Of a DNA stretch of 64,000 nt, positions 15,801 through 59,704 are shown piece after piece; the stretch's first letter is position 1; every line of letters begins with the position of its first letter. This DNA is from Escherichia phage PECP20. Made by a program: the position numbers and the translations under genes. The stretch lies in sequence record OQ873415.1. One strand, written 5' to 3'. The notes under the pieces are model-generated. The model had not been told where the DNA came from and made no database searches. It saw nothing but the letters and a program-made list of their open reading frames with translations.

Positions 15801-16109
15801 TCAATTAGAAAATAAATTTATCCAAGTTTTTTCTTTAATCAAAAATGGGTCGGAATTAAACGCCATTAAACTTTGAGTGATTAATCCCTTAAATGGCCCA
15901 TCAATAAATTCCATTTTGAAATGCGGAATACTAGTCATCAACCGTGCATTAGGAGCAGTACAAAGAACCTGCTGCCCTGCGAACGGACCTTTAGTCAAAC
16001 GGTATCGTTTAGGTTTAAAATGGTAAATCTCGTAATTTTCTACAAGAGCCCTTTTATTGCATACTGGGCTGTTATAACAATACTCAAAAACTTCAATAGT
16101 GGTCATCAT
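15801..16109 (-). CDS. hypothetical protein, 102 aa
   Basis: ORF track. Confidence 0.6.
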   Translation of the reverse strand: MMTTIEVFEYCYNSPVCNKRALVENYEIYHFKPKRYRLTKGPFAGQQVLCTAPNARLMTSIPHFKMEFIDGPFKGLITQSLMAFNSDPFLIKEKTWINLFSN

Positions 16110-16645
16110 TGCATTCCAATCACAAAAAATTGAGGACGAGCATTACCGCCGATGCAATATTTGCTTTTGCAACAGTGTTGGACTGTTTTAATATGTACAT
16201 TGTAAATCTTATCCATATCAGGAGCTTTAATAGGCTCGTCAATTATATACAGAATACGAGAAAGCGTTAATCCACGGAATTTAGAACCTTCATTGCCAAT
16301 AAAACTACGAACAGAATCAGTAAATAAACGGAATCGAATATCGTCGCTAGAATAACGAGAAAATTCTTTTTTAATGTTGCCAGCAGAAATTTTAGAATAA
16401 GCTGAAGTATTAGAAAGAACAATAACTGTTCCACCATCATACAGCCAATTAACAGCAAAATTAGTTACTGCGGTCGATTTACCTGATTGTCGGCCGCCGT
16501 CTAAACGAAGTGTACAGTACTGCTTGAGTACGTCTTCAAACGGTGGGATATAACCGTTCTTACAAATTTCTTCTACTCTAGCATCAGAATGGTGTGTAAA
16601 AGCATTCATCAGGGATAGATAAGGTCCAGTTAAAAATGTTCTCAT
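16106..16645 (-). CDS. hypothetical P-loop protein, 179 aa
   Basis: GGRQSGKST Walker A-like motif. Confidence 0.6.
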   Translation of the reverse strand: MRTFLTGPYLSLMNAFTHHSDARVEEICKNGYIPPFEDVLKQYCTLRLDGGRQSGKSTAVTNFAVNWLYDGGTVIVLSNTSAYSKISAGNIKKEFSRYSSDDIRFRLFTDSVRSFIGNEGSKFRGLTLSRILYIIDEPIKAPDMDKIYNVHIKTVQHCCKSKYCIGGNARPQFFVIGMQ

Positions 16646-16817
16646 TTAGTTTCTCTTAAGGTTGGGGCCATTCCATGGCACATGTTAGGTCCTTCGACTC
16701 GCTATGTAAACCCATTACCGCATTGCGCTCGACCTTATTACAGGTTGGAAAAGGTACATCACTCAGAGGACTCGACGTTCATGAGGAGAGGTTGCGTTTC
16801 CCTTTATTAGGCAAGAA

Positions 16818-17147
16818 TTATACTCTAGGCTTTTGAGCTTGTTTGGTATTGGATTCCCATGTGGCTTTGGTAATTTTGTTAGCGGCATAACCAAAGGCAT
16901 TAGATAGAACACCTTTAGAGTTGAATACATCCAATCCAATAAGTACACCGGCTGTGTTAAATTTAGGAGCAAAGTACGCATTAGTTTTAGAAAGAGCTTT
17001 TTTCAATTCAGGGTCTTGAACCAAGTCATCAAAAACGCCTTTACTATTTACTTTATATGTTACTTTGGGATTTTTACTTTCTTCGATAGCAGCTTTCTGT
17101 TCCGCAGATAATGTAACTTCAGTGATAAACTCTTGATATGTTTTCAT
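16818..17147 (-). CDS. internal-protein-like (capsid-targeted) protein, about 110 aa
   Basis: Start set at MKTYQEFITE, the N-terminal capsid targeting leader typical of T4 internal proteins cleaved by prohead protease. Confidence 0.6.
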   Translation of the reverse strand: MKTYQEFITEVTLSAEQKAAIEESKNPKVTYKVNSKGVFDDLVQDPELKKALSKTNAYFAPKFNTAGVLIGLDVFNSKGVLSNAFGYAANKITKATWESNTKQAQKPRV

Positions 17148-17154
17148 TTTTTCC

Positions 17155-17568
17155 TTAGTAAATTGATTTACCATAGTATTTGTACCAAGTCGGACGTTGA
17201 GCAATTTTTTCATCTAAGCGTGCTTGACTTATCGCAATGGACACTTCGGACGGGACATAATTATTACGAAATTCGGCAGGAATGTCGGAAATATCCTGGA
17301 CTGTCGTGTCCTTGATTTTGAAACCACGTTTCAAACATTCAGCGATTAGCTCGATTTGTCGTAAACGTAAAAATTCAAGTTTGTCGTAAAAGAATGTTAC
17401 GTGACCTGTGCCTAAGATAAATGTTGGAGAGATTTTAAAATCCTTTACACGTTTACCGTTTTGAACATGTTTACGGACTGCACCAAATACGCGTGGTAAT
17501 TCACGATACTCAGCCATAAGATGTTGGTCGGACAGTTCAGAAACAAGTGTTAAATTGATACGAGTCAT
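17155..17568 (-). CDS. denV: endonuclease V, pyrimidine dimer DNA glycosylase
   Basis: Start at [12 protein letters not shown]...; about 138 aa, near-identical to T4 DenV as recalled. Confidence 0.92.
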
Positions 17569-17589
17569 AATTTCCTCCAAGTAGTTGAT

Positions 17590-17626
17590 GAATGTATAGT
17601 ATCAAAACCCTTGGAGGAAGTAAACA
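17590..17626 (-). promoter_or_regulatory. early promoter cassette upstream of denV with 10-bp inverted repeat
   Basis: Plus strand ttcctccaag (17572-17581) and cttggaggaa (17610-17619) flank TATAGT; gtaaac at 17620-17625. Confidence 0.6.
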
Positions 17627-17908
17627 CTATTTTTCTGAAGCGCCTGAAATATATTTTTCAAGACGTTGTTTCATCAGCGAGCCGTTCTTAGCGATTTCTT
17701 CTGGTTTATCGCACATACGCAACAAGGCTTCAAGCTTAGCGATATCGCTGGTACGTTCAAATTTGCGAGTATCTATCTTACTAGCAAGTTCAGAAATACG
17801 TGCTAATAGACTTTCAGCTTCAACCAAAGCTGCACCTAGCTTAGTTGCAAATGTGTCAGTAGCTTCGTTAAGAATAGATTCTGATAAAAATTCACTATAT
17901 GTTTTCAT
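17627..17908 (-). CDS. internal-protein-like (capsid-targeted) protein, about 93 aa
   Basis: Start set at [10 protein letters not shown] leader; lies between denV and e as ipII/ipIII do in T4. Confidence 0.6.
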
Positions 17909-18393
17909 ATATACGCTTTCCAAGTTCCTGTTTTAAATGTTGAGATTACGCGTTTCGCGCGATTAGGTGTCTGACGATACCATTTAGATTGAGCTAGATT
18001 TACTGCCGCTTCATCCCAACGTTTCTGTTTAAGCATACGAAGAGAATTAGTAAAACCGGCGACTCCTGCTACACCCATTTGGAAGACCATATTGACCAAT
18101 GCACACCGACGAACTGCATCTAAAGAATCATATACCGGTTTAAGTTTAGCATTACCCAAGATTCCGCGAACGGCTTTATCGACGTCTTCATTAAATAGCT
18201 TTTCAGCCTCATCAAGGGTAATTGTACCGTTGCATTTACGACCGATCATTCTGTCAAGTTCAGCTTTAGCTACGGCTAAAGACTGGTTCTTTGTTACCAA
18301 GTGGCCTATGCCAATCGTCCAAAAGCCTTCAGTGTCTTTGTATAAAGTCAGTCTAAGACCTTCGTCATTACGAAGCATTTCAAATATATTCAT
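17905..18393 (-). CDS. e: lysozyme (endolysin), T4 e type
   Basis: [32 protein letters not shown]... near-identical to T4 lysozyme as recalled; catalytic E11 and D20 conserved. Confidence 0.95.
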
Positions 18394-18428
18394 AATACCT
18401 CCCACGTTTATAGGAGGTATTTATTACT
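18394..18428 (-). promoter_or_regulatory. RBS-sequestering hairpin with embedded late-promoter-like sequence upstream of lysozyme gene e
   Basis: mRNA sense AUACCUCC-UAUAAACGUG-GGAGGUAU then AUG; arms pair the Shine-Dalgarno; AATAAATA just upstream. Confidence 0.6.
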
Positions 18429-18886
18429 TATAGGATGGTAGTGAGCACCTTATATAATGATTTGCCCATTACATATTCCCATTGAGAAGGTTTAATTAAA
18501 GCGAATGCATCAAATTCAGGAATCTGTCGTCCGTCTGGGAATGTATGATAGGAATTACAAACACTGTTTCTGAATTGCTCGTGCTCTACAGGGATGGTAT
18601 ATAGGAACAGATGAATATTCTTATTATCTGAGTAATGATGTTCACCTAGGTCTTTCAGGAAGACAGGGTCATATTGTGTAAACCCAGTTTCTTCTTCGCA
18701 TTCACGAATAGCGGCTTCAATAGGAGATTCGCCAGGTTCGACATGGTCTTTAGGAATATCCCACCGATGAGCTAAAGAACCTTTAGGACGAGAACCAGTT
18801 ACACGACCCATGAATAACTCTTTATCTTTTGTCATGAAGATAATACCGGCTGATAGTTCTTTCACTTTATTTTTCTTACTCATCAT
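18428..18886 (-). CDS. nudE: Nudix hydrolase NudE
   Basis: 152 aa with Nudix box GHVEPGESPIEAAIRECEEETG. Confidence 0.85.
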   Translation of the reverse strand: MMSKKNKVKELSAGIIFMTKDKELFMGRVTGSRPKGSLAHRWDIPKDHVEPGESPIEAAIRECEEETGFTQYDPVFLKDLGEHHYSDNKNIHLFLYTIPVEHEQFRNSVCNSYHTFPDGRQIPEFDAFALIKPSQWEYVMGKSLYKVLTTIL

Positions 18887-25872: not shown

Positions 25873-26499
25873 TTACTTACGAGTTTTTGCATACTGAGCA
25901 GCGTCAGCAGCCAAACGACCTGCTTGTCGAAGTTTTTCTTTAATCTCATCATGAAGTGGTTGAGTATACTTCAAACCTTCGATAGTCAAATAAAGACGAT
26001 AAAGGTCTGGGGTATCAAGGTTGTTGATATGTTGGCCATTACGAAGACTATTGAATTCACGAACGAGTGAAGATGTATCAGATTCAATATCACGAACAAG
26101 CGAAGATAGTTGTTTATATTTTTTTTCCAGGCTAGAAGTATCAAACTTAAGAGCAGGAGCTTTAGGAGTTGCTTTTACTTCCGGCTTAGGCTCAGGTTTT
26201 GCTACTGCTTTAGGGGTCGCAGGTTTAGGAGTGGTAGGAGCAGGTTTTACTTTAGGCGAACCAGATTTAGCAGAAACACCACCACTAACAATATCTTTGA
26301 ATGCTTTAGAAGCTCTGTAATATTCTTTTTGGCTGGAAGTGTCGATACCGTACATGGCTTGAACGTTTTTGAAAAACTCTGTACTAGTTTTTGTACCAGA
26401 AATAGCATCGTAAGCAGCTTGCCATTTCTCTTTTGTCATACGTACACCGGCTTCGGTGATTACTTCCGTTTCGGCTAAAAATTCATTAAAAGTATACAT
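25873..26499 (-). CDS. internal-protein-like capsid-targeted protein, 208 aa, with Pro/Lys/Ala-rich linker
   Basis: N-terminal MYTFNEFLAETE resembles the T4 capsid targeting leader; central KPAPTTPKPATPKAVAKPEPKPEVKATPKAP low-complexity tract. Confidence 0.6.
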   Translation of the reverse strand: MYTFNEFLAETEVITEAGVRMTKEKWQAAYDAISGTKTSTEFFKNVQAMYGIDTSSQKEYYRASKAFKDIVSGGVSAKSGSPKVKPAPTTPKPATPKAVAKPEPKPEVKATPKAPALKFDTSSLEKKYKQLSSLVRDIESDTSSLVREFNSLRNGQHINNLDTPDLYRLYLTIEGLKYTQPLHDEIKEKLRQAGRLAADAAQYAKTRK

Positions 26500-26542
26500 T
26501 GATGGTCCTTAGAAAGTAGGTTTATTGTTTACTATATTTATA

Positions 26543-26611: not shown

Positions 26612-26772
26612 TGTACGAAACGCCGGGATTCGAACCCGGTTATTAAGCAGTTGACGCTACTCAATATTTTTAAAAGGCCATATCTCTACCATATCCGAAC
26701 GTCCCGTCAAAAACGCTACTCGGCTTACGGCAAAGATATTTCCTCGAATCGATAATTCTGTGCGCCGTTTCT
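26612..26772 (-). ncRNA. tRNA-like stable RNA, about 158 nt, with canonical T-arm and acceptor-like stem
   Basis: Minus-strand T-arm CCGGG-TTCGAAT-CCCGG (plus coords 26623-26639); 3' CGTTTCG can pair with GAAACG near 26766-26772; no standard anticodon or D arm found by eye; terminator hairpin follows. Confidence 0.35.
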
Positions 26773-26874
26773 GCTGTGATGTAAGGGGATATTAACGAAT
26801 CATAAAGATTTATTAAGACCAGTCCCTACTCAGGGAACATCAGTCCGACGACTTGCCGGTAGCGACCCGGCTTC

Positions 26875-27219
26875 TTATTTTGGCATATCATCAATTTGCT
26901 CTCGACGCCGACGCCATAGATTAATCGCTTCATAGGCACATTCTGCGTTTGGTATATGACGGCAATAATATAATGATTCGCGTTTCTGGAACCGATGTTG
27001 TAATGGAATTTCGTTTAAAAGGTCTTTACGGTCAAAGTATTCAAAACTAGTTAACCCAGAACGGTTTTTAAGAAACTTCCAATGTCCGAATTCATTTTGA
27101 ACATAGATGTAATCGGCATGCTGATACAGCGAATTAATCAATCGATGAGAAATAACTGTATCATATTCGTTAAAATAAAACGTTAAATCATGAACTACCA
27201 GATAAATATTGCCTTTCAT
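26875..27219 (-). CDS. hypothetical protein, about 114 aa, between tRNA genes
   Basis: Track ORF trimmed to ATG (MKGNIYLVVHDL...) because the longer ORF would overlap tRNA-Arg; GAGG RBS. Confidence 0.5.
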   Translation of the reverse strand: MKGNIYLVVHDLTFYFNEYDTVISHRLINSLYQHADYIYVQNEFGHWKFLKNRSGLTSFEYFDRKDLLNEIPLQHRFQKRESLYYCRHIPNAECAYEAINLWRRRREQIDDMPK

Positions 27220-27237
27220 ATTTTCCTCACTTAAAGT

Positions 27238-27314
27238 TGGTCGAGACAGAAGGATTCTAACCTTCAACCTACGGATTAGAAGTCCGTTGCTCCATACAAT
27301 TGAGCTATGCCTCG
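27238..27314 (-). tRNA. tRNA-Arg (anticodon UCU)
   Basis: Hand-folded cloverleaf: acceptor CGAGGCA/TGTCTCG, D-stem GCTC/GAGC, anticodon stem ACGGA/TCCGT with loop CTTCTAA, T-arm GAAGG-TTAGAAT-CCTTC, encoded CCA. Confidence 0.75.
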
Positions 27315-28900: not shown

Positions 28901-29188
28901 TTACAGAAGAGTTTTTGCAATAATTTTAAGCTGAGCTACAGAAATGTGCTTAGCTTTAAACAGTGCAGTCTCTTCAGCCGGAGAGATAACAATAGTAGCG
29001 CCATCTTTCTTAGCAGACCATCCGTCCCCTAAGTAAACAGTACCTTTTACTTCTTCACCGTCAACCAGACTAATCATTGGTTTACCCTCACGTCCTTTAT
29101 TTGTTTTAATAACTTCAGAAGTAAGGGATGCTTCGGTCAGAGTAGAAACGTTAGCAACAGGTGATATAAATTCTTTATAGGTTTTCAT
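28901..29188 (-). CDS. ipI: internal protein I-like capsid-targeted protein, 95 aa
   Basis: MKTYKEFIS... leader; located just upstream of 57B as ipI is in T4; body diverged. Confidence 0.6.
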   Translation of the reverse strand: MKTYKEFISPVANVSTLTEASLTSEVIKTNKGREGKPMISLVDGEEVKGTVYLGDGWSAKKDGATIVISPAEETALFKAKHISVAQLKIIAKTLL

Positions 29189-57792: not shown

Positions 57793-58217
57793 TGTATCTT
57801 ATCCCTGAATCTTATGAATTGGTACTCGAAAATGTCGAAGCACTTATTCCTGAAGCACAGGGCCGAATCGATGCATTGTCTTCTGCTCTCGATATTGACG
57901 ATATAAATACTATTATCGAGAACATGCTTGAAACTGAAACGGATTTAGCTGTTGCAATGGCTTCCATTATTAATGAAGAGCAGTTAAATGAGTTTATCGT
58001 TAAACATGTTTCTTCTCGTGGTGAAGTCACCCGCACTAAAGACCGTAAAACTCGTGAACGTAACGCGTTCCAAACAACCGGTCTTTCTAAAGCAAAACGT
58101 AGACAAATCGCTCGTAAGGTCGTTAAAGCTAAAAAAGCTAACCCTTCAGGCCAAGTTAAAGGCATGCGTAAGCGTAAAAAAGCTCTTAAACGTCGTAAAG
58201 CATTAGGATTAAGCTAA
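57792..58217 (+). CDS. 68: prohead core protein gp68
   Basis: 141 aa; basic C-terminus. Confidence 0.85.
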
Positions 58218-58858
58218 TGAATAAACCCGAGTTACTTATTGAAACTTGGGGTCAACCCGGTGAGATTATTGATGGCGTTCCAATGTTGGAATCTCATGAT
58301 GGAAAAGATTCCGGCTTAAAACCAGGGCTTTATATAGAAGGTATTTTTCTTCAGGCAGAGGTTGTTAACCGAAATAAACGTTTATATCCTAAACGTGTTT
58401 TGGAAAAAGCCGTAAGCGACTATATTAAAGAACAAGTCGCAACCAAACAAGCCCTTGGAGAATTAAATCATCCACCTCGTGCAAATGTTGACCCTATGCA
58501 AGCCGCTATCATTATTGAAGATATGTGGTGGAAAGGAAACGATGTATATGGACGTGCTAGAATTATTGAAGGTGACCATGGTCCCGGCGATAAATTAGCT
58601 GCTAATATACGAGCTGGTTGGATTCCAGGTGTTTCCTCTCGTGGTCTTGGTTCTTTAACCGACACCAATAAAGGGTACCATATCGTGAACGAAGGATTTA
58701 AATTAACCGTCGGTGTAGATGCCGTATGGGGTCCTTCTGCTCCAGATGCTTGGGTTACTCCTAAACAAATATCAGAATCAGAAAATTCGGTGGAAATCAC
58801 CAAAAACAGTGCTGATGAAGCATTTAAAGCTCTCGCAGAGAGTTTAAAAGCATTATAA
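58217..58858 (+). CDS. 21: prohead core protease gp21
   Basis: 213 aa; synteny. Confidence 0.9.
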   Translation: MNKPELLIETWGQPGEIIDGVPMLESHDGKDSGLKPGLYIEGIFLQAEVVNRNKRLYPKRVLEKAVSDYIKEQVATKQALGELNHPPRANVDPMQAAIIIEDMWWKGNDVYGRARIIEGDHGPGDKLAANIRAGWIPGVSSRGLGSLTDTNKGYHIVNEGFKLTVGVDAVWGPSAPDAWVTPKQISESENSVEITKNSADEAFKALAESLKAL

Positions 58859-58891: not shown

Positions 58892-59704
58892 ATGATCAAA
58901 GAACAACTTTTGAAAGAAGCTCAGAATATCGAGACTTCAGTTGCTCTTAATAGTGTTTTCGAATCAGTAGAACTGTCTCCGGACGTTAAAGCTAATTTCA
59001 GCACTGTATTCGAAGCCACCGTTAAGCAGGAAGCAGTCAAACTAGCTGAATCTCATATCAAAGCTATCGCCGAAAAAGCCGAAGAAGAAGTTGAAAAGGC
59101 TAAAGAAGATGCTGAAGAGAAAGCTGATAAAAAATTGGCTGAACAAGCTTCTAAATTCCTGGACCATCTTGCAAAAGAATGGCTCGCAGAAAACCAAATC
59201 GCAGTTGATAAAGGCATTAAAGCTGATTTGTTCGAATCCATGCTTGGTGGTCTGAAAGAACTGTTTGTTGAACATAACGTTGTTGTTCCAGAAGAATCTG
59301 TAGATGTTGTAGCAGAAATGGAAGAAGAGCTGGCCGAACATAAAGAAGAAACCGCTCGTTTGTTCGAAGAAGTTACCAAACGTGATGCATATATCAATTA
59401 CGTTCAGCGTGAAACCGCTATTAATGAAAGCGTAAAAGACCTGACTGAATCTCAGAAAGAAAAAGTTATTGGCCTGGTTGAAGGTATGGATTATTCTGAC
59501 GCATTTGGTACTAAGTTAACTGCTATTGTAGAAATGGTTAAAGGTTCTACTAAAGAAGAAGCCGCTATTACCGAAAGTATAAATACAGTTGACAATGACG
59601 CTGCCGGTCTTAATTTTGTTGCCGAAGCAGTTGACACTACCACAACTCAGGTAGAACAGAATTCTAATGTAAGTTTATATGCGAAAGTCGCATCTCGTTT
59701 CTAA
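58892..59704 (+). CDS. 22: prohead core scaffold protein gp22
   Basis: 270 aa acidic helical protein; late promoter upstream. Confidence 0.9.
   Translation: MIKEQLLKEAQNIETSVALNSVFESVELSPDVKANFSTVFEATVKQEAVKLAESHIKAIAEKAEEEVEKAKEDAEEKADKKLAEQASKFLDHLAKEWLAENQIAVDKGIKADLFESMLGGLKELFVEHNVVVPEESVDVVAEMEEELAEHKEETARLFEEVTKRDAYINYVQRETAINESVKDLTESQKEKVIGLVEGMDYSDAFGTKLTAIVEMVKGSTKEEAAITESINTVDNDAAGLNFVAEAVDTTTTQVEQNSNVSLYAKVASRF

Follow-up and report, generated by a model that had tools for sequence, protein, structure and literature searches.

Candidate internal protein genes on both sides of denV in the RB69-like Escherichia phage PECP20, and a capsid-targeting leader at the junctions of their cassettes

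The endonuclease V gene denV of Escherichia phage PECP20 (sequence record OQ873415.1) is flanked by two small open reading frames (ORFs) that probably encode internal proteins (IPs) of the T4 type, designated here IP93 and IP109 after the length of their products in amino acids (aa). The window, i.e. the whole stretch of 64,000 nucleotides (nt) that was analysed, belongs to a Mosigvirus, an RB69-like T-even phage; around denV, its sequence shares 99.2% identity with that of Escherichia phage LF82-41 and >97% with those of many further members of the genus (the RB69 group). The genes around denV all lie on the minus strand in the order nudE, e, IP93, denV, IP109, vs.8-like, vs.7, vs.6, for comparison with e, ipIII, ipII, denV, vs.8 in T4. 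A first-pass annotation of the window had placed an ORF with a capsid-targeting leader on either side of denV, and the coordinates and leader residues of both are confirmed. The locus comprises the following features, with a slash marking a putative cleavage position:

18428-18886, minus strand: nudE
17905-18393, minus strand: lysozyme gene e, identified by sequence and by the annotation of the 99.2%-identical phage LF82-41
17627-17908, minus strand: IP93, a 93-aa ORF of the Ip5 family (PHROG 3499)
17864-17908, minus strand: predicted propeptide of IP93, 15 residues ending SILNE/A, with two candidate gp21 sites (LSE10 and LNE15)
17569-17626, minus strand: T4-early-type promoter GTTTAC-N17-TACTAT in an 11-bp inverted repeat (CTTCCTCCAAG / CTTGGAGGAA)
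17155-17568, minus strand: denV, endonuclease V, 90.5% identical to T4 denV (tblastn)
17118-17147, minus strand: leader of IP109, MKTYQEFITE/V; the leader DNA and the ribosome-binding site form the cassette junction
16818-17147, minus strand: IP109, a 109-aa ORF starting MKTYQEFITE (PHROG 3966)
16646-16817, minus strand: non-coding spacer of 172 nt, 3' of IP109
16106-16645, minus strand: vs.8-like gene

In this arrangement, denV is the conserved gene that divides an array of cassettes into two parts. The ATG of IP93 overlaps the TGA stop codon of e (ATGA), which suggests translational coupling, and in most of the loci surveyed below the e stop codon likewise overlaps the first leader gene. The ATG of IP109 lies 7 nt past the denV stop codon and is preceded by an AAGGA ribosome-binding site. 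Within the genus, IP93 and IP109 are 95-100% conserved (IP93 98-100% across Mosigviruses), the IP93 family being present in 496 phage records and IP109 in 90. The ribosome-binding site or coupling, together with this conservation over many phage records, argues that both are real genes. The reading that they encode T4-type internal proteins, which takes in packaging, gp21 cleavage, injection and an anti-defence role jointly, is given a probability of about 0.7.

The leader is not a chance match: of the 530 open frames that start with Met and are 50 aa or longer, two match a strict leader pattern, and in 100 shuffled windows none does. When the N-terminal pattern is relaxed to M-x-x-[YF]-x-x-[FY], exactly four ORFs of at least 60 aa match in the window, namely IP109, IP93, a 208-aa gene and an ortholog of T4 IPI, in agreement with the earlier count of four leader-bearing genes. 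In T4 IPIII, mutations showed that targeting depends on residues 4 and 7 and cleavage on residues 8 and 10 (PMC9026906). The targeting residues are Y4 and F7 in IP109, IP93 and IPI, and F4 and F7 in the 208-aa protein; IP109, IP93 and the 208-aa protein all have an aromatic residue at position 4, Phe7, Ile or Leu at position 8 and Glu10. Candidate sites for the prohead protease gp21, recognised as [LI]-x-E sequence motifs only, are ITE10/V in IP109, LSE10/S and LNE15/A in IP93, LAE10/T and ITE16/A in the 208-aa protein and LTE19/A in IPI. As DNA, the four leaders are 63-77% identical over 30 nt, and identity falls to chance level right past the leader. Both the cognate prohead protease and the cognate scaffold are encoded within the same window, as are the two remaining leader-bearing genes:

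25873-26499, minus strand: 208-aa leader-bearing gene, MYTFNEFLAE/TEVITE/AG (phrog_2280, unknown function)
26535-26542, minus strand: exact T4 late promoter core TATAAATA upstream of the 208-aa gene
28901-29188, minus strand: IPI ortholog with a 19-aa leader ending LTE/A, 86% identical to T4 IPI
58217-58858, plus strand: gp21 prohead protease (Pfam Peptidase_S77, E 1e-106), the enzyme expected to remove the leaders
58892-59704, plus strand: gp22 scaffolding core protein (Pfam T4_CASP, E 1.5e-89), the expected docking partner of the leader

The gene at 28901-29188, described earlier as ipI-like, is a true IPI ortholog, with a match to Pfam IPI_T4 (PF11634) at E 2.6e-49 and 165.5 bits against a cut-off of 25; IP93 and IP109 have no match to this Pfam family.

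IP93 matches phrog_3499, 'internal head protein', at E 2e-46, and its family carries the same label in RefSeq. Judged by an identity of 47-48% to 'Ip5' of the Tequatrovirus RB9, a name attributed, reportedly, to Repoila and colleagues in 1994, IP93 is a homolog of Tequatrovirus Ip5 that is sited in a different IP locus. Since Ip5 lies between 57B and ipI and IP93 between e and denV, one family occupies different IP loci according to genus. In the alignment of the IP93 family, M1, K2, T3, F7 and E15 do not vary, whereas E10 does, the propeptides reading MKTYMNFYQNLSLNE/A in RB69, MKTYNEFLTVTTLNE/A in the family member P0006 and MKTFKEFATKTTITE/S in Ip5. Because E15 is the sole cleavage site conserved family-wide, the functional propeptide of IP93 probably comprises 15 residues and is of the IPI type. 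The mature protein would be ~9 kDa with an isoelectric point (pI) of ~6.3, i.e. not basic; similarly, the pI of T4 IPI is close to neutral at 7.9. The AF2 model of IP93 is all-helix (pLDDT 72.6, pTM 0.36), with low confidence in its packing.

IP109 is assigned to PHROG 3966, 'unknown function', and all records inspected label it 'hypothetical', among them that of RB69 ORF123c, which is 97% identical to it. A more distant relative is ORF115 of the Dhakavirus WG01, which shares 37% identity with IP109, retains the leader (MKTYQQFITE) and likewise lies 3' of denV. Word-based protein searches returned nothing beyond near-identical proteins, and a HMMER search of 1.84 billion representative proteins returned only IP109's own cluster and the Dhakavirus branch. 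Mature IP109 is calculated at 10.8 kDa and pI 9.6. Its AF2 model (pLDDT 78.5, pTM 0.65) predicts that the leader is disordered and that the remainder forms a compact alpha/beta domain, a single-domain build that is as expected for a small head-packaged protein; no informative structural neighbour of the predicted structure was found. Residues 11-100 (16848-17117) contain a weak motif, VT.SAE.K...NP..TYKV, resembling the tandem YGDANPALTY-type repeats of the large bacterial adhesin-like proteins P0008 and P0011. This resemblance was rejected as a significant match and is probably without meaning, the score being summed over 5 and 12 repeats and no Pfam domain being present.

The bodies of the two proteins had been described as not recognisably IPII or IPIII, and this stands. 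Leader-trimmed IP109 and IP93 gave no BLASTP match to T4 IPII or IPIII (E > 0.5), high identity to either was looked for by comparison and not seen, and an all-vs-all HHalign comparison of 16 leader-trimmed families reached a best probability of 11.6%. The PHROG assignments of IP93 and IP109 also differ from those of IPII and IPIII. On these sequence comparisons IP93 and IP109 are not orthologs of T4 IPII and IPIII. That they are true orthologs which diverged in place beyond recognition is suggested by their occupying the same locus and by the closeness of mature IP109 to mature IPII (9.8 kDa, pI 9.6). However, recognisable IPII and IPIII homologs occur elsewhere in the survey, including a 192-aa IPIII-like gene that adjoins IP109 in the Mosigvirus-type loci L007 and ESh15, so the IPIII-like and IP109 families coexist. 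The IP93 homolog Ip5 also coexists with ipII- and ipIII-type loci in Tequatroviruses, where it occupies the ipI locus, and with HHalign probabilities below 12% divergence in place is very improbable.

The layout was placed in context by a survey of leader-bearing ORFs in 38 T4-like loci around denV, 35 of which have e-denV-vs.8 synteny. Leader genes lie on both sides of denV in 22 of the 35 syntenic loci, RB69 included, on the e side only, as in T4, in nine, on the vs.8 side only in three and on neither side in one. The arrangement that had been pointed out as a departure from T4 is thus real, but it is the common state and the T4 layout the minority. In the 35 loci, the leader is present in almost all ORFs of at least 60 aa that lie between e and denV or between denV and vs.8. 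In a body-only BLASTP comparison over the 38 loci, the ORFs between e and vs.8 fall into 13 unrelated body families, to which extra members were added for the 16-family profile comparison. Position relative to denV is not fixed by family, the IPIII family being found 5' of denV in some phages but 3' of it in others. RB69 has the order e, ORF127c, denV, ORF125c, ORF124c, ORF123c, vs.8.

The Mosigviruses compared have flanking DNA that is >97% identical, and within these near-identical flanks they carry one to four cassettes 3' of denV. Named by the length of their products in aa, the cassettes 3' of denV are arrayed as follows:

the window and LF82-41: 109
WFL6982: 86, 109
APCEc01: 86, 104, 109
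RB69: 86, 90, 109
L007: 86, 192 (IPIII-like), 109
ESh15: 86, 104, 192, 109
L006: 86, 192

The 60 nt 5' of the IP109 ATG are identical to those 5' of the first post-denV gene (86) in APCEc01, and the upstream flank is also identical to that of the first post-denV gene in RB69; from codon 3 on, IP109 of the window corresponds to the third post-denV gene of both APCEc01 and RB69. When the genomes are compared, four different upstream contexts are seen in front of the IP109 body, and these contexts occur in other arrays in front of the 104 or 192 bodies. The transition from context to body falls in every case within the ribosome-binding site, the start codon or the leader. These junctions at the leader, together with the loss of identity right past it, give direct comparative support to recombination at leader DNA, which is said to have been first proposed by Repoila and colleagues in 1994, a proposal that PMC4122927 cites. 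In the proposed mechanism, cassettes would be gained, lost and moved at their 5' ends by recombination in the conserved ribosome-binding-site and leader DNA, and at their 3' ends conserved early-promoter elements may act as recombination sites too.

The 3' end of the IP93 cassette is of this kind. The element at 17569-17626, which is kept 3' of IP93 in all Mosigvirus arrays and has the denV Shine-Dalgarno sequence in the 3' arm of its inverted repeat, looks like a PeSL element and would mark the 3' boundary of the cassette. In read-through transcripts, the element might also mask the ribosome-binding site of denV. On the other side of IP109, the spacer at 16646-16817 is homologous to the T4 sequence 5' of the conserved vs.8 start and contains an early-promoter-like site (16710-16682) for vs.8. 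About 90 nt of this spacer (CCAACCTGTAATAAGGTCGAGCGCAA..GCGGTAATGGGT...CATGTGCCAYGGAATGGCCC) are highly conserved with the inside of the annotated 40-aa N-terminal extension of T4 vs.8; the explanation would be either a T4 vs.8 start placed too far 5' in the annotation or a conserved regulatory element. The spacer was also considered as an RNA or as a gene remnant, and both were rejected (no Rfam match, no tRNA, and a predicted fold less stable than that of shuffled sequences at z = +2).

The claim of a hypervariable repertoire of injected proteins is right in kind, as there is a variable repertoire of capsid-targeted proteins. The variability applies to the presence, absence and identity of the cassettes, but not to their sequences, given the conservation of IP93 and IP109 within the genus, nor to the 208-aa gene, which had been counted into the set. 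The latter gene is conserved and syntenic in at least four genera of the Tevenvirinae. Its family is found in 143 phage records from Mosigvirus, Dhakavirus, Kanagawavirus and Karamvirus, although it is 'hypothetical' in every record inspected. The window protein has Tyr instead of Lys at position 2 of the leader and consists of two domains with a Pro/Ala/Lys-rich linker between them. All four aligned homologs keep the leader (MKTYNEFLNE, MLNFNEFITE, MLNFKEFIAE) as well as a second [IL]TE/AG site and the linker. Among the leader-bearing genes, the 208-aa gene alone is preceded by an exact TATAAATA; this promoter is conserved in IME08 and AS6 and is itself preceded by a terminator hairpin, directly 3' of rnaC. 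From these sequence features the protein is a candidate conserved head-internal protein. Homologs of two T4 stable RNAs lie close by, rnaC at 26614-26752 (97.8% identity) and rnaD at 26760-26878 (84%), neither of which is in Rfam. The gap of ~360 nt between tRNA-Arg and rnaD holds a 130-aa ORF of unknown function (26875-27267), unlike in T4, and the window has only two tRNAs (Arg-tct and Met-cat) as compared to eight in T4.

The proposed pathway for IP93 and IP109 follows that of the T4 proteins. The leader, M-K-T-Y-x-E-F-[IL]-x-E, would attach the new protein to the gp22 core during prohead assembly, after which gp21 would cut past the Glu of the [LI]-x-E motif, i.e. at E10 in IP109 and probably at E15 in IP93. 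The mature protein of 9-11 kDa would remain in the head with the DNA, enter the host with it and, most likely, disable a host defence ahead of phage gene expression. For IP93 and IP109 we infer packaging, cleavage, injection and the anti-defence role alike. The T4 proteins Ip1, Ip2 and Ip3 have nothing but the leader in common, and each of them is an inhibitor of one specific GmrSD-type type IV restriction enzyme (PMC12373910). Furthermore, RB69 IPI protects against GmrSD (PMC6024577), and Mosigvirus DNA, with its arabinosylated cytosines, is a substrate of GmrSD and BrxU (PMC13390438).

Several points weigh against this interpretation. The anti-restriction role is proposed entirely by analogy with T4 Ip1-3. 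Literature searches found no virion proteome, N-terminal sequencing or genetic data covering IP93 or IP109. Neither gene has an exact TATAAATA directly upstream, and IP109 follows denV behind an early-type promoter, so that late expression is assumed. One-mismatch late promoter sites occur at chance frequency in the window (170 found vs 168 expected) and were set aside. The absence of a basic character in mature IP93 is unlike the classical IPII and IPIII. In the RB69 reference (NC_004928, locus L005), Glu10 is replaced by Ala in the IP109 homolog ORF123c (2471-2800), and the IP93 homolog ORF127c (1046-1327) has a compensated -1/+1 frameshift in its leader, MKTYMNFYQNLSLNE. Intact processing may, therefore, not be strictly required. 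These RB69 changes, which would alter cleavage at position 10, could be mutations of the laboratory strain or sequencing errors.

The same observations bear on a rival reading, in which the leader would be a relic, or a translation-initiation module shared by the genes, and the proteins would be unpackaged, cytoplasmic early accessory proteins. Co-transcription of IP109 with denV from an early-type promoter in place of an exact late one, and the damaged cleavage residues in the RB69 reference copies, would fit such proteins. However, T4 IPs are themselves made from early times onward. The leader is retained in homologs whose bodies are 37-48% identical (WG01 ORF115 and RB9 Ip5), and its determinants (an aromatic residue at position 4, F7, I/L8, and E10 or E15) persist both there and in 13-16 unrelated families. 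The leader DNA also shows synonymous changes. This combination points to selection on the peptide and not on the DNA alone, and makes unpackaged proteins a highly unlikely explanation.

Alternatively, IP93 and IP109 may be packaged but serve head assembly or DNA packing, as core accessories or charge neutralisers, instead of counter-defence. T4 IPIII mutants show slower head assembly, a smaller burst size and polyheads (PMC9026906), mature IP109 is basic, and the 208-aa protein, with its lysine-rich Pro/Ala linker, cross-genus distribution and late promoter, fits a structural role better than an arms race. A needed assembly role is disfavoured for IP109 and its neighbours because they are freely present or absent among Mosigviruses with flanks >97% identical. 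Since IP93 is acidic to neutral and all three T4 IPs now have anti-GmrSD targets, a purely structural function for the pair is considered improbable, though less so than a relic leader.

Within the preferred interpretation of packaged, injected anti-defence proteins, a bolder version can be put forward tentatively, which is judged possible but rather doubtful. The host defences that IP109, IP93 and the 208-aa protein would inhibit after injection may be ones that have not yet been linked to a phage counter-measure, a candidate target being type IV nucleases which recognise the arabinosylated cytosines of Mosigvirus DNA. The leader DNA would then be a 'plug-in' site, at which recombination may give any ORF both expression and capsid delivery, in an integron-like manner for injected effectors. 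Given a Pro/Ala/Lys linker that is histone-H1-like, the 208-aa protein could be a new type of conserved internal protein that associates with DNA.

The general phenomenon has been known for decades and the system is of a known kind, so that the current picture is extended and not changed. What is added here is that IP93 is, by sequence, an Ip5 homolog in a different locus, that the 109-aa and 208-aa families are unlabelled leader proteins and that the cassette junctions map to the leader. Injected internal proteins act ahead of phage gene expression, and all three of those in T4 are now known to inactivate particular type IV restriction enzymes. Candidates for new anti-defence proteins against hosts of arabinosyl-cytosine phages are the unlabelled 109-aa and 208-aa families. 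The junctions support the long-standing idea that leader DNA is a recombination handle which shuffles the repertoire, and such shuffling matters for predicting host range and for engineering T-even phages for therapy.

IPI, IPII and IPIII of T4 are capsid-targeting-sequence proteins (Mullaney and Black 1996; reviewed in PMC9026906). With these, IP93 and IP109 share the 10-residue leader layout MKTYxEF[IL]xE, small size and the gp21/gp22 machinery, and the genes of the window occupy the same loci as in T4 (e-denV and 57B-trna.4). They differ from IPII and IPIII in bodies without detectable similarity, in having one cassette downstream of denV and in the non-basic nature of IP93. Packaging and function are, in comparison to the T4 proteins, putative here. 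Ip5 (RB9 gene RB9_139) is 48% identical to IP93 over its full length, with Glu15 and a C-terminal EIAKNGS.MK.RLE motif conserved, but its gene is located between 57B and ipI and its leader (MKTFKEFATKTTITE) is IPI-like, whereas IP93 is found between e and denV, would be coupled to e in translation and contains LSE10 as an additional site.

The type Mosigvirus RB69 (NC_004928) is another close system, with the same gene order around denV. Its ORF127c shares 91% identity with full-length IP93 and 98.8% with the mature body, and ORF123c is the IP109 counterpart. The 664 bp of the ORF125c and ORF124c cassettes are missing from the window, the junction lying in the leader, and the leaders of the window are intact as compared to those of the RB69 reference. 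Finally, PeSL-mediated modular shuffling has been described in T4-like phages (Arbiol 2010; Comeau 2014, PMC4122927). As in that system, the variable ORFs are bordered by short, conserved regulatory repeats at which indel junctions also fall, and an early promoter with a stem-loop is found 3' of IP93. The 5' junctions of the window, however, lie at the ribosome-binding site and the leader-coding repeat and not at a promoter stem-loop.

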